Positions 12,242 through 36,038 of a stretch of 45,838 bases of DNA are shown here, piece by piece; positions within the stretch are counted from its first letter, which is position 1, and each line of letters begins with the position of its first letter. A model generated the notes under the pieces. That model had not been told where the DNA came from. It made no database searches and saw only the letters and a list, made by a program, of their open reading frames with translations. The translations under genes were made by a program, and so were the position numbers. The DNA comes from a phage: the NCBI GenBank assembly GCA_014143165.1, contig GCA_014143165.1_4843.1; one strand, 5' to 3'.

Positions 12242-12270
12242 TTGACGTAGATTGACGTAGCGTTTATAGT
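12242..12270 (+). promoter_or_regulatory. sigma70-type promoter (TTGACG-17 bp-TATAGT) with tandem TTGACGTAGA
   Basis: TTGACG at 12242-12247 and 12252-12257; TATAGT at 12265-12270; drives the plus-strand ParB/MTase/clamp unit. Confidence 0.45.
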
Positions 12271-12488: not shown

Positions 12489-13298
12489 ATGAAAACACTC
12501 AGCAAAATATATTCAGACAAAGAAACGCGCAACGGCATCGCTGTTAACAAAACCTATCTCGTGCCAGTTGAGCAAATCTATCTGGAACCGGGCTACAACA
12601 TCCGTGAAGCAGATGAGCAGCATGTGGAATATTTCGCGCAGTGCTGGGAATCAGGTCAGCCACTGCCAGCATTAACAGTTATTCCTGACGAGAAGGGAAT
12701 CCGCATTCTTAATGGTCAGCATCGCTATCTCGGCGAATTGCGTGCCATTGAGCGTGGCGCGCCAATCGTTCGCATTGAGTGTAATGATTTTACAGGAGAC
12801 GAAGCAGATAAAATCGCCTTCATGGTGTCATCCAGTCAGGGTAAGCAGCTCGACCCGTTTGAGCGCGCAAAGGCTTACACGAGACTGAAAGGTTTTGGCT
12901 GGACGAATGAAGAAATCGCCAAAAAGGTAGGCCGCTCAGTATCTGATGTGCAAATGCATCTGTCACTGGGTGATGTTCCAGCGGAAGTGAAAGCGCGCAT
13001 CAGTGCAGGACAAATCAGCTATGCAAATGCCGTAGCGGTAACGCGCGAGCATGGTGATGATGCGGCTAAAGTTATCGACGAGGCAGTCGAAGAGGCCAAA
13101 GCACAAGGCAAAGACAAGGTCACAGCGAAAGTACTGAAGGCGAAAAAGATTAAGCCAGTAGACCGCCTGATTGAGTTATTGAAGCCAGCCGACCATGTGA
13201 TTCTCCCCGCTGGTCATGTGGTGGCAGAGGATGAGGAATTTATCCAGATTCCTGTCGCAGACATTCACGAGGTTATGGCAATTCTGGAGAAGATGTGA
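12489..13298 (+). CDS. ParB-like N-terminal-domain (ParB/Srx fold) DNA-binding protein
   Basis: N-terminal ...VPVEQIYLEPGYNIRE... and ...LNGQHRYLGELRA (ParB GERRxRA-box-like), followed by HTH-like WTNEEIAKKVGRSVSDVQMHLSL. Confidence 0.65.
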   Translation: MKTLSKIYSDKETRNGIAVNKTYLVPVEQIYLEPGYNIREADEQHVEYFAQCWESGQPLPALTVIPDEKGIRILNGQHRYLGELRAIERGAPIVRIECNDFTGDEADKIAFMVSSSQGKQLDPFERAKAYTRLKGFGWTNEEIAKKVGRSVSDVQMHLSLGDVPAEVKARISAGQISYANAVAVTREHGDDAAKVIDEAVEEAKAQGKDKVTAKVLKAKKIKPVDRLIELLKPADHVILPAGHVVAEDEEFIQIPVADIHEVMAILEKM

Positions 13299-14095
13299 TG
13301 ATAGTCCACTACTACAATGAGTGGGACAAGGGCGCAGCGGCATGGCTGCGCGAATTAATTAACAATAAACTAATTCCTTACGGATATGTCGATGAGCGAT
13401 CAATTACCGAAGTCACCCCTTCAGACCTGGAAGGATTTACACAATGTCACTTCTTTGCCGGAATCGGAGGGTGGCCCCTTGCACTCCAGCTGGCAGGAAT
13501 ACCAGAGAGCACTCGACTCTGGACAGGATCACCACCTTGCCAGCCGTTTAGCGTTGCCGGTCAGTCTCGCGGATTTGATGACGAACGACACCTTGCCCCT
13601 GTATTTCTCCGGCTCATCAGAGAGTGCAAACCTGAATTGCTATTTGGAGAGCAGGTTGCGGCAGCAATTGCAAAGCACTGGCTCGACTTTGTATTCCTTA
13701 ACCTGGAAGAAAAAGGCTACACCTGCGGGGCGGCAGTATTGCCAGCTTGCAGCGTCGGCTCTCCACAGGAAAGGAAAAGAACCATCTTTGGCGCGAGGAT
13801 GGGCGACACCAACAGCGCGAGGATGGAAGGATTATGGGAATCTCAGCAAGTCATTTTACAGAAAGGACGGAAAATTCAGGAACGATACTCTTTATCGCCA
13901 GATGTGGCTTCATGTTTATGGGATTCATGGAAACCCAAACATGGAGCAGATAAAGAAACTAGAGTCATACCAGGCGGATTTTGCGAGGCAACTCATGGGG
14001 TATCCGCAAGAGTGGGACGACTGCGCGGTTATGGCAATGCCATAGTTCCACAAGTCGCAGCAGAATTCATTAAAGCATTCATGAGGTCCGTTTAA
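13295..14095 (+). CDS. compact DNA (cytosine-5)-methyltransferase
   Basis: Motif I FFAGIGGW, motif IV GSPPCQPFSVAGQ, motif VI LLFGEQV, motif VIII GSPQERKRTIFGA, motif X GYGNAIVPQVAAEFIKAF. A second open frame (13386..14045) carries a motif-IX-like FARQLMGYPQEW (see findings). Confidence 0.7.
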   Translation: MMIVHYYNEWDKGAAAWLRELINNKLIPYGYVDERSITEVTPSDLEGFTQCHFFAGIGGWPLALQLAGIPESTRLWTGSPPCQPFSVAGQSRGFDDERHLAPVFLRLIRECKPELLFGEQVAAAIAKHWLDFVFLNLEEKGYTCGAAVLPACSVGSPQERKRTIFGARMGDTNSARMEGLWESQQVILQKGRKIQERYSLSPDVASCLWDSWKPKHGADKETRVIPGGFCEATHGVSARVGRLRGYGNAIVPQVAAEFIKAFMRSV

Positions 14096-16004: not shown

Positions 16005-16008
16005 CAGT

Positions 16009-16248: not shown

Positions 16249-17319
16249 TTACTGCGGAGTTTGTGTACCGTAGCCGTTGAACACTTTGGACTTACCGGAG
16301 AAATCCTTGCGCACCTGAAGCCCCATAGCAGACCATACGAGGAAGTTAAAGTTATCGTGCGGATTGTCACGGGCTGCCGCATAGGTGGAAACAGGCTGAG
16401 CAACACGCGGACGGATGTACATGTCGTTGCGAACGTAGCCAACGAAATGGTTGCCAGTCAGCAGGAAGTTGGTGCCAATCTTGCCGATGCGACCATTGCC
16501 GAATTGCGTGATGTACTGCTCAACAGTGCCGCCTTTGAAGCCTGCCGCATCAGAATACGGACGCATGAAGCTACGACGCACTGCCGGGGAAACCCACAGA
16601 GTCACCTGCTCAAATACGTTCTGTGCATCCAGAATAGCCTGGAAATCCTGATTGAAGAATTTCACGATTTCGTCTGGCGTTGCGGTTTGCAGGTCGATAT
16701 TCAGACCGCCGGAAGCATTCAGGTTAACCTGAATAGTGTTCGGGTGGTTGGTGATACCGTAGCCAGTGTAAACGCCATTCACGTTCAGAGTCTGGTCGCC
16801 AGTCAGCAGGTACTGCGCCATATCGGAACGCAGGTTGAAGGTGACGTTAGCCTGATCGTCCAGTAGTGGGTCAAAACCTTCAGACTGCATACCCAGCAGT
16901 TCGCGCCATTCGCGGCTGTAGCCAGTCTTGAAGATTGGAATCACATCGCCAGTGTAATCGTAGCGAGTTTTATCCAAATCTTCTGGCTCCTGACCAGACA
17001 GAGTGCGAACAACTTTACCAGCATCGGAAGCAATGCGGCTGATTGCCACAGTCTTACCGATATTGATGTTTGCCGCGATGCCCATCAGGTCAGCCATCAT
17101 ATCCTGACCAGCTTCGTTGCGGAAAACGCGAGTGGTAACGTTATCCACGTCGCGCCAGTAATCTTTCGTTACCAGTGCTGTGGCGTTAACGCCGTAAGTT
17201 TTCGCCAGTTCAGCTTCTGCATTGCAGAACACTTTACGGTCGATGGTCAGATGTTTCCACTGGTCAGCCACTACTGCGGAGTTGGCTACCAAATCTTTGG
17301 TAAAAATAATCTTTTCCAT
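16249..17319 (-). CDS. major capsid protein
   Basis: 356-aa ORF after scaffold/protease and decoration-like genes and before a strong terminator; size and position typical of HK97-fold capsid proteins. Confidence 0.65.
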   Translation of the reverse strand: MEKIIFTKDLVANSAVVADQWKHLTIDRKVFCNAEAELAKTYGVNATALVTKDYWRDVDNVTTRVFRNEAGQDMMADLMGIAANINIGKTVAISRIASDAGKVVRTLSGQEPEDLDKTRYDYTGDVIPIFKTGYSREWRELLGMQSEGFDPLLDDQANVTFNLRSDMAQYLLTGDQTLNVNGVYTGYGITNHPNTIQVNLNASGGLNIDLQTATPDEIVKFFNQDFQAILDAQNVFEQVTLWVSPAVRRSFMRPYSDAAGFKGGTVEQYITQFGNGRIGKIGTNFLLTGNHFVGYVRNDMYIRPRVAQPVSTYAAARDNPHDNFNFLVWSAMGLQVRKDFSGKSKVFNGYGTQTPQ

Positions 17320-17321
17320 TA

Positions 17322-19075
<1,754 letters not shown>

Positions 19076-19112: not shown

Positions 19113-20510
19113 ATGCCGAAGAAGATGACTATTGATGAGCTCAAAGAAAAGATTCGTAGCGTTCATGGCGAGACGTATGAGTATGATTTTCATACCTTCC
19201 ATGGCTGCCACTCACCAATGAAAATAGTATGCAAAAAGCATGGGGAATTCTGGCAAAAGCCATCCAAACACCTTCATGGTCAGGGGTGTGCAAAGTGCCA
19301 AAGGGGCGTTATTTCTGTCGATGACTTCAAATCAATGGCCTCCGCTATTCATGACGGGAAATATGACTATAGCAAGGTTTTTTTTGAAGCGTTTTCAAGG
19401 GCAAAGATAACAATCGGATGCCCGATTCATGGGTGGTTTGAGCAATTGGCCTACATTCATCTGAAGAGGGGTAATGGATGCCCAAGGTGTGGAGATGAGA
19501 GATCGAGAAAAGCCAAGTTAAAAAAGTTCAGCAATTTTGTTGATGATGCGAAATACGTCCATGGTGATAAGTATGAGTATTCCCCGAATGGTTTTACTGG
19601 TTCTCGAGGCAAGATTAATATCTTATGTCCTACACATGGTGAGTTTACTCAAGGTGCCGCAAATCACCTGGCTGGTAATGGGTGCCCATCGTGCGCAAGA
19701 GTGATGTCAAACATAGAAGCCGATATCCTTGCATTTGTTAAGTCACTGGACCCACATGTGATCAGCAGGGATAGAGCAACGATAGCACCATATGAACTGG
19801 ATATAGTCTCAAGAGCAAAATCATTAGCCATAGAGGTAAACGGCACATACTGGCACTCGGAGAGGGCTGGGAAAGATAGGTTATATCACAAAATGAAAAG
19901 AGAGATGGTTGAAGAATCTGGGATGAGATTGATAAGCATAAGAAGTGATATATGGAGAGATAAGCGCGAATTAGTAGAGGAAATAATAATTAATGCCATG
20001 GGGGCATCTGAGAGCAGGAAGGTTGACGCAAGAAAGTGCACCATTAAAGATGTATCACCATCTGAATCAAGGGCTTTTCTTGATAGATACCATGTTATGG
20101 GAGGGAGGAATGCCAGTAGGCACTTCGGTTTATTTTGTGGCGGTGAACTGGTATCTGTTATGTCATTTACAGTAAGGAAAGGTTCTGTTGAGTTAGTTAG
20201 ATTCGCATCTAAATGCAATGTTCGTGGTGGGTTAACAAAGATGCTAAAACACTGCTCATCAGTTGTTGGTTTTGATAAGTGTTTCAGCTATGTAGACCTT
20301 GATTTGTTTACCGGTAAATCATACCTCTTAGCTGGCTTTAAAGCTGTAAGCATAAAACCCGGATTCGCGATTGTTAACGGAAATCATGTGGAATCAAGGC
20401 AAAAGTGGAATAAGGCACCTAATGGCATGACTCAGAGCGAATGGTACGAATCTGAAGGCGTAAGCAGGATATGGGATAGCGGACAAATGAGAATAGAGTG
20501 GAGTAAATAG
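19113..20510 (+). CDS. endonuclease-like protein: three tandem zinc-ribbon repeats, PD-(D/E)xK (Vsr-like) core, unknown C-terminal domain
   Basis: Three repeats of C-x2-HG-x-F-x-Q...HL-x-G-x-GCP-x-C; nuclease-like YELDIV...LAIEVNGTYWHSE; about 140-aa C-terminal domain of unknown fold; inserted antisense between structural genes. Confidence 0.55.
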   Translation: MPKKMTIDELKEKIRSVHGETYEYDFHTFHGCHSPMKIVCKKHGEFWQKPSKHLHGQGCAKCQRGVISVDDFKSMASAIHDGKYDYSKVFFEAFSRAKITIGCPIHGWFEQLAYIHLKRGNGCPRCGDERSRKAKLKKFSNFVDDAKYVHGDKYEYSPNGFTGSRGKINILCPTHGEFTQGAANHLAGNGCPSCARVMSNIEADILAFVKSLDPHVISRDRATIAPYELDIVSRAKSLAIEVNGTYWHSERAGKDRLYHKMKREMVEESGMRLISIRSDIWRDKRELVEEIIINAMGASESRKVDARKCTIKDVSPSESRAFLDRYHVMGGRNASRHFGLFCGGELVSVMSFTVRKGSVELVRFASKCNVRGGLTKMLKHCSSVVGFDKCFSYVDLDLFTGKSYLLAGFKAVSIKPGFAIVNGNHVESRQKWNKAPNGMTQSEWYESEGVSRIWDSGQMRIEWSK

Positions 20511-20518
20511 AAAGTAAA

Positions 20519-20543
20519 AGGTGTCATTTGACACCTTTTTTTG
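20519..20543 (+). terminator. rho-independent terminator
   Basis: GGTGTC-ATTTG-ACACC hairpin followed by TTTTTTT. Confidence 0.5.
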
Positions 20544-20856
20544 TGGTCGAATTATAACACAGGGAGATATAGCACCATGAGGCGGTAGCCAGTGCAAATA
20601 ATGGCGAATCGGTGAGTGCGTATAGCGTGAGAAAGTAAGGGATGGGGATTATGTTCATGGGCTACCTCCTGATTAAATGATAGCAGCCCATGATGAACAA
20701 AAGATATACGGTGTTAGTCTGAAATCACATCATCCATGAATGCAAGCGCAGCACCTGAAAGACAGAACAGAGCGCCATAGCAAATCATCTGGTAGAGAGT
20801 GTCAGCCTCAAATACCCTCGCGAATGCGTAAGCGGATAAAATCCACAGTAATGGAA

Positions 20857-21183
20857 TCATAACCCAGCCTCCTGCTTTGCGCGGTGAACGTATGACATAA
20901 ACTTGCCAATTGGCATTTCCTTGCGGATTTGCGCCAGTATCGCCCCGTGAATCATTCTTTCCTCGCCGTAATACAACTTATCAAGTCGAGTTTTAATGAG
21001 TGCTCGCGTACGTTTCATGTGGTCGCGTGCCTTAAGTGCTTTCTCATGCCATACGCGGTCATTCTTCTTATCAGCATATTGCAGTTGGCGTTCAACAGTT
21101 TCGATTTCAAACGCCAGTTGCACGTCATAATCTTCGAGCTGAATGATGTCTGCTTTCATAATGTCGTTTAGTTGGATAATCAT
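20857..21183 (-). CDS. hypothetical early protein
   Basis: 108-aa ORF; overlaps the upstream gene stop. Confidence 0.4.
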   Translation of the reverse strand: MIIQLNDIMKADIIQLEDYDVQLAFEIETVERQLQYADKKNDRVWHEKALKARDHMKRTRALIKTRLDKLYYGEERMIHGAILAQIRKEMPIGKFMSYVHRAKQEAGL

Positions 21184-21557
21184 TTTTTCACCTTTAAGTT
21201 GTGTTTTGTTAATTCATTAATGACATCATTTTGGTCGCACAGCAGCAAATGCATATTGCTTAGGTCAATCTCAATTGCTGCGCGAGATGCTTGCCATGTT
21301 TGCCAGTGACCTTGGACATCATCAATCACATACTGACCACCAACATTACCACTGCCAACCTCGTGGTGATTTTCAGGGTAACGAACAAGGTCTGATTCCT
21401 CACCTCCGCGTCGCAACCAGCTTGTTTCAAACTGCTCTCTACTCGTCATCTTCACTTCCTCCACTATCCATCCCATCTCTTTACGGTTATTGGCAATAAA
21501 CTCATCTGATGTCACAAACAGAGTTCTGCCGGATTTATGCTTAATAGCCCATCTCAT
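21180..21557 (-). CDS. hypothetical early protein
   Basis: 125-aa ORF. Confidence 0.4.
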   Translation of the reverse strand: MRWAIKHKSGRTLFVTSDEFIANNRKEMGWIVEEVKMTSREQFETSWLRRGGEESDLVRYPENHHEVGSGNVGGQYVIDDVQGHWQTWQASRAAIEIDLSNMHLLLCDQNDVINELTKHNLKVKK

Positions 21558-21682
21558 TTAGTGCATCCTCAGCAAGTTTGCGGAACATGATTTGCACTCT
21601 TGCCACCTTACGCCATTCCGCTTCGGTGAGAATCACATCCTCATGCTGCGGCATTCCCGACATTTCGCATGGCGGTAATGGC

Positions 21683-22171
21683 TCATACTCTTGCTTCTTG
21701 CGTTTGGCTTTCCCCATAATGACCCCTCACATTGCGAAGAAGTGAATTGAACAGGTTGCTGACGTTAACTTCCTGCTCACGCCACGAATAACGCCACAGC
21801 TTCTTGTGGTGGTCATAGCTTCGCGTCACATCACCGTTATGAAACATGATGCGGATTCTGCTTTTCACGATTCGGTAATCAATACCAGTGGCTACGCTGA
21901 TTTCTTTCACTTCCGCGCCAGCATTATCAAGCAGGTGACACTTAATCGCATCATCAATGCCAGCAGCATCATCAGAGATGAAATATTTATACTGCCACTT
22001 GCCACCACGAATCACTGACTTCTCACGGCGAATGAAGCCAAGAGCAAGCATCTCATGCAAACGATGCGTTGTAGTGCTTGAATGTTTTCCGCTGCAATGC
22101 TTCTCAATGTATGCGCGAGTTGCACCAGGATGATTGATAATCACGCGCATGATTTGTGATTTATAATCCAT
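21683..22171 (-). CDS. putative winged-helix DNA-binding protein
   Basis: ATG at 22171 lies just after the Lar-like stop; product MDYKSQIMRVIINHPGATRAYIEKHC...HRLHEMLALGFIRREK...GGKW has a winged-helix-like pattern. The longer track ORF (to 22336) overlaps the Lar-like gene. Confidence 0.4.
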   Translation of the reverse strand: MDYKSQIMRVIINHPGATRAYIEKHCSGKHSSTTTHRLHEMLALGFIRREKSVIRGGKWQYKYFISDDAAGIDDAIKCHLLDNAGAEVKEISVATGIDYRIVKSRIRIMFHNGDVTRSYDHHKKLWRYSWREQEVNVSNLFNSLLRNVRGHYGESQTQEARV

Positions 22172-22418
22172 AATCGCGTTCCTTTGCTGCATGATTGAAG
22201 TCGTCGGCTGTGTAGAGGTGTCCGTTGCGGGTATTCCATCTTCCCTTTGCGCTACGTAATCTGACGTATTCTTCACTTTTCTTGCCACAATCAAGGCATT
22301 CAATAATCCATCCGTGAGGTACTGCGCAAGGAACAACCCTTAAGCCACCGCAATTATCACACTCTAGCAATCCGTGCTCATTCATCATCGGCATATATGG
22401 CACTGTCATTTTATCCAT
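22161..22418 (-). CDS. Lar-family-like restriction-alleviation zinc-ribbon protein
   Basis: CDNCGG...CLDCGKK zinc ribbon followed by ...AKGRWNTRNG, resembling the Lar pattern (CPFCG...WNRR). Confidence 0.45.
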   Translation of the reverse strand: MDKMTVPYMPMMNEHGLLECDNCGGLRVVPCAVPHGWIIECLDCGKKSEEYVRLRSAKGRWNTRNGHLYTADDFNHAAKERDYGL

Positions 22419-22600
22419 TCTCCAATGTTGTTAAATTTAGGCGTATCACCAGACCAGTCGATAACGTCTCTTTGCTGACTGCGTTTGCGTTGCAGGCGGT
22501 TTCGCACCTCTCGCAGTTCACATTCCAGCCATTCGCAAGTACGCTCAACTTCATCCAGTCGCTGGATTAGCGATTGCTCGTACAGTTCGTCATGCGCCAT
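22406..22600 (-). CDS. hypothetical early protein
   Basis: 64-aa helical ORF. Confidence 0.35.
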   Translation of the reverse strand: MAHDELYEQSLIQRLDEVERTCEWLECELREVRNRLQRKRSQQRDVIDWSGDTPKFNNIGEWIK

Positions 22601-22660
22601 TTATAATTTCTCCCGTAGAATTTGATAACAACGTGCTCAACGCACAGATAACCTTCATCT

Positions 22661-22858
22661 TCAACCGTTACTGGTTGAACTATAAACCAACGCAGATATA
22701 AGTTCGTCAGCCTTTTCACGACCTGCAACCTCCGCTTCAAGCGCCAGTGAACACATGGCAGTTTCCACATACTTAATGGTATCTTCGCGAACGTTAAGGA
22801 TTTCCATAACCTCGCGCACCTCTTTCTGATATCTCGCTGCTATTTCTTTGTATTGCAT
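22661..22858 (-). CDS. hypothetical early protein
   Basis: ATG at 22858 with AAGGTGA RBS; first gene downstream of the minus-strand TTGACGTAGATTG element at 22899..22887. Confidence 0.4.
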   Translation of the reverse strand: MQYKEIAARYQKEVREVMEILNVREDTIKYVETAMCSLALEAEVAGREKADELISALVYSSTSNG

Positions 22859-22958
22859 TTCCACATCACCTTTTCCGTTGTGGTACAATCTACGTCAATA
22901 AGTATTGACTAAATGATGTAGATTGGTCAACAATAATTTCCGAAAAGGAGTAGTAAAT

Positions 22959-23174
22959 ATGCCAAGACCACGACGCGAGCCGATGGACATTATCACCAGC
23001 ATTGTGGAGAAGCGGCAGCCGCTGACGCTCCGTGATGTTCGCTACTTTGCCCGTTGCTATGTGGCGCTGGCTGATATGTCTAAAAATGACATGTATGATT
23101 TAATTCGTGCCAACTTCAGTGTTGACGAGAATAACAAAGTCACAATAAAGGAGAGTGATGATGGATTGGAATGA
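22959..23174 (+). CDS. hypothetical protein
   Basis: AAGGAG RBS 8 nt upstream of ATG 22959. Confidence 0.4.
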   Translation: MPRPRREPMDIITSIVEKRQPLTLRDVRYFARCYVALADMSKNDMYDLIRANFSVDENNKVTIKESDDGLE

Positions 23175-23643
23175 TGTGTTCGAATACCGTGATGGGTTGC
23201 TATATTGGAAGATAAAAACAAACAGAAACATGAAAATAGGGAGGATGGCAGGAAGCATGGCAGGTAATGGGTACATGCAGGTTCATTGCTTTGGAAAAGT
23301 GCGACTGATGCATAGAATAATTTGGGAAATGCACAATGGTGAGATACCGGAGGGGATGGAGATTGATCATATAAACCACATTCGTGATGATAATAGGATT
23401 GAGAATCTCAGATTGGTAAGCAGAAAGCAGAACGCCAAGAATCTTTCTATGCGATCTGATAACACGAGTAATGTTGTCGGAGTTAGTTGGGATAATAAGA
23501 GTAAGAAATGGTATGCAAAGATTGCCGTGAACGGAAAGCAGATTGCGCTTGGCAGATTCTCAAACTTGTCAATGGCTGCAGAGTGCAGAAAAGCAGCTGA
23601 GGAAAAATATTGTTTCCATAAAAATCACGGAGCATTAAAGTAA
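23155..23643 (+). CDS. HNH homing endonuclease with AP2 DNA-binding domain
   Basis: HNH motif EIDHINHIRDDNRIENLRLVSRKQN; AP2-like GVSWDNKSKKWYAKIAVNGKQIALGRFSNLSMAA. Confidence 0.75.
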   Translation: MMMDWNDVFEYRDGLLYWKIKTNRNMKIGRMAGSMAGNGYMQVHCFGKVRLMHRIIWEMHNGEIPEGMEIDHINHIRDDNRIENLRLVSRKQNAKNLSMRSDNTSNVVGVSWDNKSKKWYAKIAVNGKQIALGRFSNLSMAAECRKAAEEKYCFHKNHGALK

Positions 23644-34617: not shown

Positions 34618-35267
34618 TCACCCTATTTCACATATCATATAAACTTTCCTCATTAGGCCGTCAAACAGCATTGGGTGTATAGAATCACATAACCCCTTAA
34701 TTTGCTTTGCTTGCTTTATCTTTTCATTCTTCCATGCCTGATGCGCTTCAATCACCGAACTGAAATAGCCTAAAAATACTGTACGACCATTGCCATCACC
34801 TATGTGCGCTTGATAGGCGCCAGAACACTTATTAAATGACACACCTATAGGCAAGTCACCTCTCGAGGCATTCCTTGCTGTCACGAAGTTGTTTAGGTGT
34901 GGAGGCACGTAAACACATGCTTCAGGTGAGTAAGTCAAATTACCCGGAATCAATATATCCTTATCAAGGTGCCACCCTTCAACGTAATGGTTCTTCCACC
35001 ACAAATTAAAGTTTGAAAACATCAGCCACTCATTACAACAAGTAACATTCTCATATGTTTTGTGTTGTTTTTGAATCCATCATCAAAACACCTCCTGAGC
35101 ATTTGATACCATTGGCTATATCCATAATGTTGCACCTTTTTACCATCAACTTTCATCGCAACACCGAAGCCACAATCATTAACTCCAACACCAAATATTG
35201 GCTTTCTTTTTCCTTTCTTTATATCTCTGTTAAGCTCCATTTTTATGGAGAGATTTTTCTTTTGCAT
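34618..35267 (-). pseudogene. HNH homing endonuclease (with AP2-like domain) split by a frameshift
   Basis: Two abutting ORFs, 35022..35267 and 34618..35022, overlap as TGATG. Family-like sequence ...RCFDDGFKNNTK / TYENVTCCNEWLMFSNFNLWWKNHYVEGWHLDKD... continues across frames; both frames are open around the T/A runs at 35058-35072. Confidence 0.5.
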
Positions 35268-36009: not shown

Positions 36010-36038
36010 AATCTACATCAGATGTGATTCTACGTCAA
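36010..36038 (-). promoter_or_regulatory. sigma70-type promoter (minus strand; TTGACG-17 bp-TAGATT)
   Basis: Minus-strand TTGACG (36038..36033), 17-bp spacer, TAGATT (36015..36010); first gene ATG at 35979 with GAGG RBS. Confidence 0.5.

Follow-up and report, generated by a model that had tools for sequence, protein, structure and literature searches.

A Small-Gene Operon With a Lar-Family Zinc-Ribbon Gene of Exchangeable Core in a Skatevirus-Type Siphophage

The operon described here lies in the phage contig GCA_014143165.1_4843.1 (assembly GCA_014143165.1), which has a length of 45,838 nucleotides (nt) and is referred to as the window; all coordinates follow the numbering of the whole contig. 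Nine co-directional open reading frames (ORFs) on the minus strand, named g1 to g9, span positions 22858 to 20524 and form a dispensable, recombination-prone accessory operon. Profile comparisons show its third gene, g3, to belong to the Lar/RalR family of zinc-ribbon proteins. The overall reading, an accessory small-gene operon in which a Lar-family member with an exchangeable core would serve host interaction during takeover, is put forward with about even confidence, and g3 appears as a reasonable but unproven counter-defence candidate. The genes are listed below, with lengths in amino acids (aa) and, where given, the ratio of nonsynonymous to synonymous polymorphism (pN/pS).

g1, 22661..22858, minus strand: 65 aa, phrog_37091, pN/pS 0.16, presence/absence slot
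g2, 22406..22600, minus strand: 64 aa, helical and acidic, phrog_15697, pN/pS 0.12, part of the backbone
g3, 22161..22409, minus strand: 82 aa, Lar-family four-cysteine zinc ribbon with conserved ends and a hypervariable center
g4, 21683..22171, minus strand: 162 aa, basic (isoelectric point, pI, 9.6), two predicted tandem winged-helix domains and a C-terminal helix
g5, 21541..21717, minus strand: 58 aa, phrog_17117, pN/pS 0.07
g6, 21180..21557, minus strand: 125 aa, phrog_343, modular and hypervariable
g7, 20857..21183, minus strand: 108 aa, helical, phrog_14549, pN/pS 0.04, the most conserved gene of the operon
g8, 20714..20860, minus strand: 48 aa, two hydrophobic segments, acidic C-terminus, pN/pS 0.07 over 24 distinct variants
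g9, 20524..20658, minus strand: hydrophobic peptide of 44 aa (40 aa in most relatives), pN/pS 0.35

Assignment of g3 to the Lar/RalR Family

In a preliminary description of the window, a Lar-type protein had been called at 22161..22418, and a failure of this call in profile searches had been named as a reason to give it up. At the level of the family, the call did not fail. Homologues of g3 were found 70 times, all of them 74–90 aa long, many on contigs of 45–49 kb and others on shorter contigs. Of the 71 sequences of the family, 66 match the Pfam model PF14354 (Lar_restr_allev) with an expectation value (E) of 1e-3 or lower, the best being 2.3e-13, and the orthologue of phage Bas77 reaches 34.2 bits, which is above the gathering cut-off of 28.6. 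The g3 protein of the window itself matches the family phrog_599 'Lar-like' with an E of 1.4e-6. Furthermore, the profile of the 71 sequences was aligned by hhalign with Lar/RalR of the Rac prophage at a probability of 97.7% (E 1.5e-12) over 51 columns, which comprise the whole ribbon and the WNxR helix. As single sequences, g3 and Rac Lar share 27% identity over 45 residues.

Within the family, residues C41, C44, W61, N62, and R64 are invariant, and at least 90% of the homologues have C20 and C23 as well. The AlphaFold2 (AF2) model of g3 consists of a zinc ribbon, built as a beta-hairpin, and two helices; its mean predicted local distance difference test value (pLDDT) is 83.8, with values above 90 for the helix 54–61. 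The start of the gene was moved, as the ATG at 22409 is likelier than the upstream ATG at 22418 (which would give 85 aa), because it overlaps the stop codon of g2 in an ATGA and because the relatives start there. YdaE of the Rac prophage was also considered as a relative of g3 and was rejected. The label 'Lar-like' is already carried by relatives in public records; judged by the sequence, 'Lar-like restriction alleviation' is for g3 a homology label.

Conserved Backbone and Exchangeable Cores

The 3-kb region is matched piecewise by 153 phage records at 80–95% identity. These are siphoviruses of Salmonella, Escherichia, and Shigella, e.g., Sf11, D10, IME207, ASO78B, and Bas77, Bas79, and Bas80 of the BASEL collection. 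As the nearest of them aligns, at 92% identity, with 81% of the first 25 kb, the window phage is a new member of this cluster. In the BASEL paper, Bas77–81 form the genus Skatevirus, and the genus Roufvirus roots the tree of the group; the window phage is a Skatevirus-type siphophage infecting Salmonella and E. coli.

For the comparison, every operon gene was mapped in 49 related loci, which comprise a close Salmonella/E. coli clade and a distant Klebsiella-phage clade. A comparison of gene content with relatives, which had been suggested as a check, yields a conserved backbone with hypervariable slots. The backbone consists of g2, g4, g5, g7, g8, and g9, which mostly show 84–100% identity in the close relatives. 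The g1 slot, an optional DUF7301 gene, the center of g3, and the center of g6 are variable and differ among phages that are otherwise about 90% identical. The g1 slot aligns in about 58% of the close relatives and in no relative of the far clade, and other phages carry alternative first genes at this place. The DUF7301 gene, located between g2 and g3, was detected in about half of the relatives and is absent from the window. This pattern of slots and cassettes fits genes that face variable partners and is therefore an indirect support for a role in host interaction.

The ends of g3, MxAPxMPMMNDEGLLEC and WNTRNGHLYTADDFNQAAEERDYGL, are conserved even between the two clades, and the ribbon core of about 35 residues between them occurs in at least 21 allele types among the 49 phages. 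Within a type, the core shows a pN/pS of 0.21, the same as its flanks, and is thus under purifying selection; between types, the divergence is saturated, with a pS of 0.79 and a pN of 0.52 (pN/pS 0.66). Two core types are common to the Salmonella/E. coli and the Klebsiella clades. In the pair L016/L046, the cores share 93–97% nucleotide identity, compared to 60% for g2 and 43% for g4. The core is thus far more similar than its flanks, which marks it as a cassette swapped recently, with the breakpoints falling within the conserved ends of the gene. The aligned loci show g3 cores to have moved between phage clades, apparently by recombination within these ends.

The second gene with an exchanged center is g6, in which a conserved N-terminal module of 36 aa is fused to a 'MTSREQFE...LKVKK' module, the latter having its own Shine-Dalgarno sequence and an ATG at 21449. 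In other phages, the N-terminal module is fused to a CxHEW...CMWC module; it stands alone in L021 and L023, and in L034 and L036 it forms an ORF separate from that of the 'MTSREQFE...LKVKK' module. The allele types of g3 and g6 assort nearly independently (adjusted mutual information 0.13), and their weak association probably comes from the clade structure.

Dispensability and Restriction Data From Relatives

For the Skatevirus seszw, a spontaneous loss of 'genes 3-10' as a block was described in the CiPGr study (PMC9825161), and several operon genes can also be lost singly. In the GenBank numbering of the mutants, with which the wild-type record agrees for these genes, they correspond to the g1-slot gene through g7. 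According to the deposited mutant genomes, from which the deletions were read, at least 28 sequenced records of viable mutants share a deletion of 413 bp by which the g4 homologue is lost. In other mutants, the g1-slot gene is gone, or g2 (as in the viable seszw_20L), or a stretch of 100 bp where g5 meets g6; a loss of g3 was seen in none of the listed seszw mutants. Because these mutants are viable, the deleted operon genes are dispensable in the laboratory host.

The locus had earlier been taken for an anti-defence and host-takeover region. What stands of this claim is its accessory, arms-race-like character, seen in the hypervariable slots, the cassette exchange, and the dispensability; its anti-defence part is opposed by the marked sensitivity of relatives with g3 orthologues to restriction-modification (RM) systems. 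Several observations weigh against a role in host interaction and counter-defence. Bas77, Bas79, and Bas80 carry Lar-like orthologues and are called 'markedly sensitive to RM systems' in the BASEL paper. Their efficiency of plating (EOP) is 0.03–0.2 on EcoKI and about 1e-4 to 1e-3 on EcoCFT_I, which makes a strong type I anti-restriction by these alleles unlikely; on type II and type III systems, values of 1e-5 to 1e-7 were reported. The table entry of Bas77 lists one EcoKI site and two EcoCFT_I sites. A partial or allele-specific anti-restriction by the Bas77, Bas79, and Bas80 alleles may exist.

In addition, the g3 protein of the window, when compared alone, reaches PF14354 with 20.9 bits (E 4e-4), which is under the gathering cut-off, and fold and sequence searches of g3 against solved structures give only generic zinc ribbons (aIF2-beta, TFIIB). 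Accounts of how the Lar/RalR family works also differ, as a later description makes Rac Lar a non-specific DNase toxin, RalR. An acidic DNA mimic of the Ocr/ArdA type (pI < ~4.5) was not found among the operon proteins: the soluble ones have a pI of 4.7–9.6 and a net charge of −4 to +8, only the hydrophobic g8 of 48 aa is lower (pI 4.05, net charge −4), and none of the operon proteins matches Ocr/ArdA-type families in Pfam and PHROG searches. Furthermore, genes of any non-essential function could be lost in a single laboratory host, and the deletions do not point to counter-defence in particular. Finally, as regards an early timing, no recognizable terminator is found between g9 and the head genes in relatives, so the cluster runs into these genes.

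Within the reading as a host-interaction operon, g3 would bind a polymorphic host target with its variable zinc ribbon in the manner of Lar, while the conserved tails would keep a constant function on the phage side. In its most specific form, g3 would be a specificity-cassette locus, in which an exchangeable zinc-ribbon core between constant tails retargets the protein to variants of a polymorphic host defence component, e.g., type I RM methyltransferase families; g6 would form another cassette locus of this kind, which assorts independently of g3. This proposal is tentative and rather unlikely to hold in full.

The Hydrophobic Proteins g8 and g9

Two tiny hydrophobic ORFs with strong ribosome binding sites had been noted at the end of the operon. 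Both contain two hydrophobic segments and are preceded by the Shine-Dalgarno sequence AGGAGG, and the first one was corrected from a boundary at 20711 to 20714–20860. The 40-aa frame of g9 is kept at 52% identity in the distant Klebsiella-phage clade. The conservation of this frame, the Shine-Dalgarno sequences, and the selection on the ORFs argue for g8 and g9 being real genes. A counterpart of g9 is annotated in Bas77 as Bas77_0037; the peptide matches no PHROG family, and its last codons have been rewritten by the adjacent endonuclease insertion (N to KKGVK). g8 is a probable small membrane protein, and both g8 and g9 would act at the inner membrane.

The start of g9 coincides with a predicted RNA structure:

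20652..20699, minus strand: RNA hairpin upstream of and reaching into g9, with the g9 Shine-Dalgarno sequence (20669–20665) and AUG (20658) in its 3' arm

The hairpin has a minimum free energy of −20.5 kcal/mol and a z-score of −3.0. An equivalent hairpin of different sequence exists in the Klebsiella clade (−22 to −26 kcal/mol). In the alignment, the pairs are kept by one-sided changes only, with no double compensatory change. By sequestering the Shine-Dalgarno sequence, the hairpin would throttle g9. In ASO78B, a 'rho-independent terminator' is annotated between g8 and g9; this annotation was rejected, since the structure has no U-tract and contains the Shine-Dalgarno sequence and the AUG of g9. 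When g9 is compared with type I toxins (hydrophobic peptides under 60 aa with a sequestered Shine-Dalgarno sequence and an antisense RNA antitoxin), its hydrophobic 40–44 aa and the hairpin burying the Shine-Dalgarno sequence would agree, and searches for an antisense RNA or an Rfam family for g9 gave no result.

Instead of inhibiting host defences, g8 and g9 might be membrane peptides for superinfection exclusion, lysis timing, or depolarization, with g9 as a tightly repressed toxic peptide similar to type I toxins. Such a function of the two genes is possible, though doubtful. It would fit their strong hydrophobicity, the purifying selection on both, and the hairpin that is conserved around the g9 start in two clades. 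Against it stand the lack of a match of either protein to known families of exclusion proteins, holins, or toxins, the presence of a lysis cassette apart from the operon, the negative search for an antisense RNA, and the absence of double compensatory changes in the hairpin.

The Tandem Winged-Helix Protein g4 and a Putative Shared Operator Motif

The AF2 model of g4 (pLDDT 80) contains two tandem winged helix-turn-helix (wHTH) units of the H3-beta2 type in one chain, followed by a terminal helix. Foldseek matches include winged-helix domains of AspA, MepR, 1sfx, and SelB, the top ones being multi-winged-helix proteins; on the whole, the fold searches return generic winged-helix proteins and unannotated viral relatives. 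The winged-helix-like protein expected from the sequence at 21683–22171 is thus supported by model and fold matches. On the sequence level, g4 shows weak matches to MarR, TrmB, and AspA-like proteins, with all Pfam scores under their cut-offs, and it carries the PHROG label phrog_1687 'MarR family'. A classical MarR protein was rejected, as MarR_2 is reached with just 17.2 bits (cut-off 27) and the model shows two tandem wHTH domains in one chain; accordingly, g4 is a tandem winged-helix protein and not a classical MarR. Its homologues were found only in this phage group, and g4 adjoins g3 in both clades.

The divergent promoter/operator region and the copies of its motif comprise the following elements:

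22878..22933, no strand assigned: divergent promoter/operator region with a 26-nt imperfect inverted repeat
22886–22898, minus strand: TTGACGTAGATTG, exact motif, about 30 nt upstream of the first ATG
22913–22925, plus strand: ATGATGTAGATTG, the partner of TTGACGTAGATTG inside the inverted repeat
TTGACC 22930–22925, 18 nt, AATACT 22906–22901, minus strand: predicted operon promoter of the sigma-70 type (consensus scan)
TTGACT 22905, 18 nt, AACAAT 22934, plus strand: predicted divergent promoter serving the g0 unit (consensus scan)
22959..23174, plus strand: g0, 71 aa, phrog_14963, first gene of a divergent small-gene unit that shares the operator region with the operon
7754, 9148, 12243, 22888, 22914, 25908, 25936, 31236, and 36011, no strand assigned: exact copies of TGRYGTAGAT

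The two predicted promoters overlap back-to-back. The blocks TTGACnAATCTACRTCA..TAGTCAATACT..GTAGATTRTA of this region are kept in 42 distinct relatives of both clades, and g0 shows 83–100% identity in close relatives and about 56% in the Klebsiella clade. The exact 13-mer TTGACGTAGATTG occurs three times in the window. Its core TGRYGTAGAT has nine exact copies, compared to 0.32 expected, and none of 100 shuffles reaches nine. At 12242, 25907, and 36038, its first bases form the −35 element of a promoter whose spacer measures 17 nt. Most copies adjoin predicted promoters: they overlap the −35 element or the spacer of promoters of the TTGAC type, or they precede one of two TGNTATAAT elements by about 30 nt. 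Since it recurs at several predicted promoters, TGRYGTAGAT looks like a putative operator of a phage regulator that is common to several transcription units. No description of the TGACGTAGATT motif was found in the literature.

The small genes might therefore be imagined as a regulatory module internal to the phage, in which g4, possibly together with g3, binds TGRYGTAGAT and controls phage transcription instead of acting on host defences. The basic g4 with its two winged-helix domains resembling DNA-binding regulators, the g3–g4 adjacency kept in both clades, and the nine operator-like sites, most of them at predicted promoters, would be in line with this. However, the g4 homologue is deleted in the viable, genome-reduced seszw mutants named above, so that it cannot be an indispensable switch; the extreme allelic diversity and cassette exchange of g3 would be unexpected for a reader of a conserved operator, and other candidate binders exist in g0 and in a ParB-like helix-turn-helix (HTH) protein at 12489–13298. 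A purely regulatory module is thus considered unlikely.

A Possible DNase Activity of g3

The K-12 gene formerly named lar is now annotated as the endodeoxyribonuclease toxin gene ralR, and cleavage of methylated as well as unmethylated DNA has been reported for its product (PMC4041452). Reviews still cite Lar as an alleviator of type I restriction that acts via enhancement of modification (PMC10286901, citing King and Murray, 1995). Given the annotation of this founding member, the reported cleavage, and the significant profile-level homology to RalR, g3 might be imagined to attack host DNA in the course of takeover, as a small DNase or toxin, in which case its role would not be the alleviation of restriction. 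This is regarded as very unlikely: the identity to RalR is low, the zinc ribbon of about 50 residues has no recognizable nuclease site, the hypervariable core fits target recognition better than catalysis, and the clade-specific conserved tails of g3 are absent from RalR.

Operon Structure and Transcription

The minus-strand run of small genes and the sequence element upstream of it, both of which had been described before, are confirmed by nine packed ORFs behind a predicted sigma-70-type promoter and by the presence of TTGACGTAGATTG. Six junctions between the genes overlap, by 11 nt at g3/g4, 35 nt at g4/g5, and 17 nt at g5/g6, and by an ATGA at g2/g3, g6/g7, and g7/g8; the remaining two have gaps of 60 nt (g1–g2) and 55 nt (g8–g9). 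Because most junctions overlap in this way, the genes form a translationally coupled operon. PHROG family matches were obtained for eight of the nine genes, with E ranging from 1e-6 to 1e-70. Pooled pN/pS values against relatives are 0.04–0.16 for g1, g2, g4, g5, g7, and g8 and 0.35 for g9. In scans with Pfam, NCBIfam, and PADLOC, nothing above threshold was found for seven of the nine proteins, and Rfam and tRNA scans of the locus remained empty. The gene g7 is confined to the lineage, as an exhaustive HMMER search of 1.84 billion cluster representatives gave 14 matches, all of them close. From the low Pfam score of g3 alone and from g9 lacking a PHROG family, one might suspect that the small ORFs arose by chance and that the Lar-like call is a false match to a generic zinc finger. 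This is already refuted by the conservation and profile results, namely the strong PHROG matches of eight genes, the purifying selection on the alignable ones, the g9 frame kept in a clade at about 52% identity, and the profile-level homology of g3 to Lar.

The 3' end of the operon contains further elements:

20551..20559, minus strand: predicted promoter TGTTATAAT of the extended −10 type, within the 3' end of g9
29839, 20559, 19113, 9123, and 7724, minus strand: copies of the extended −10 element TGNTATAAT
20516..20539, no strand assigned: bidirectional intrinsic terminator of an inserted endonuclease-like gene, at which the minus-strand unit of the window likewise stops

The extended −10 element in the 3' end of g9, TGTGTTATAAT, is present in all of 50 relatives from both clades. 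The window contains five copies of TGNTATAAT, all of them on the minus strand. Four of the five copies are located upstream of minus-strand gene starts (the portal gene, a head protease/scaffold-like gene, and two others), and the fifth, inside g9, is upstream of the head genes in relatives without the endonuclease insert. In these relatives, the head protease/scaffold-like gene, whose DUF2213 match is just below the Pfam cut-off, starts 16 nt after g9. TGTTATAAT is likely the promoter of the downstream head genes and hence the functional 3' limit of the small-gene unit, and the TGNTATAAT elements probably represent a second, late promoter class. The presence of motif-type and TGNTATAAT-type elements points to two promoter classes, which fits a small-gene operon that is expressed separately and probably earlier; early expression is thus inferred. 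No transcriptome was found in the literature for this phage group. Taken together, the host sigma-70 RNA polymerase would start in the divergent promoter/operator region at about 22900 and read the coupled genes g1 to g9, and the head genes after g9 would be driven by their own extended −10 promoter inside g9.

A strong intrinsic terminator is located at 16005–15985 on the minus strand, downstream of a 356-aa ORF (16249–17319) whose counterpart in relatives is annotated as coat or virion structural protein. Relatives without the endonuclease insert have no other clear terminator in the co-directional array that extends from the promoter at about 22900 to this one.

Neighboring Insertions and Other Genes

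Between g9 and the head protease gene lies an endonuclease-like gene of 465 aa (19113–20510, plus strand) with DUF723/zinc-finger repeats and a restriction-endonuclease-like domain. It is shared by one of the 49 fetched relatives (L017) and by few public phage records, and it has its own promoter-like site (18960–18988) and the bidirectional terminator (20516–20539). The homology to most relatives ends at 20540, and the insertion separates the TGTTATAAT promoter from the head genes.

In the divergent unit, a homing endonuclease gene with HNH_3 and AP2 domains (23155–23643, plus strand) is probably a mobile insertion, since just about 6–24% of the close relatives align there. In a further unit (12489–14095, plus strand), with the motif promoter at 12242, a C5 cytosine DNA methylase is encoded besides the ParB-like HTH protein; if a gene of the phage protects it from restriction, this methylase is a more conventional candidate than g3. 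Finally, two adjacent ORFs of 81 and 134 aa (34618–35267, minus strand) downstream of the motif promoter at 36038 resemble, by eye, a split endonuclease-type gene.

Significance

What is new about the locus is the build of g3 and g6 as cassettes, the assignment of g4 as a tandem-wHTH protein, and, at the end of the operon, two micro-genes, a hairpin at the start of g9, and a predicted promoter within g9. The annotation of the locus is sharpened with respect to gene starts, the tandem-wHTH protein, and two real micro-genes, and the deletability of much of the operon is useful for phage engineering. If the zinc-ribbon cores are target-specific inhibitors, this phage group would offer an existing series of alleles in which to follow how variable bacterial defences are recognized and disarmed by small proteins, and the cores would help to explain host-range differences among near-identical therapeutic phages of Salmonella, E. 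coli, and Klebsiella.

Comparison With Known Systems

Like g3, Lar/RalR of the Rac prophage has a four-cysteine zinc ribbon followed by a helix with WN-x-R, and both are small proteins whose genes stand together with other small accessory genes of phage origin. However, the two share only 27% identity, the core of g3 is hypervariable and cassette-like, and Lar/RalR lacks the clade-specific conserved tails MPMMNxxGLL and NGHLYTADDFNxAAxERDYGL. Moreover, no RalA-like antisense RNA was detected for g3. The Ral protein of lambda, a functional analogue of Lar for which an alleviation of type IA restriction via enhanced modification is proposed, is the model for the possible role of g3. The likeness to Ral is in the proposed action only, and relatives with Lar-like genes are still restricted by EcoKI and EcoCFT_I.

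With MarR-type regulators, g4 shares the winged-helix fold, but it would carry two winged-helix domains in one chain of 162 aa, in contrast to the MarR dimer with one wHTH per chain and dimerization helices at both termini. The operon proteins are also unlike the mimics of the Ocr/ArdA type, which are strongly acidic and have a large negative charge. A parallel in organization can be seen in the hypervariable accessory regions of enterobacterial phages, in which variable, laboratory-dispensable small genes are likewise located between conserved flanks, and a screen of such phage accessory genes has recovered the counter-defence genes ocr, ral, and ardA. In those regions, whole genes are present or absent, whereas in the operon described here the variation also lies inside two genes, in the form of swappable cores.

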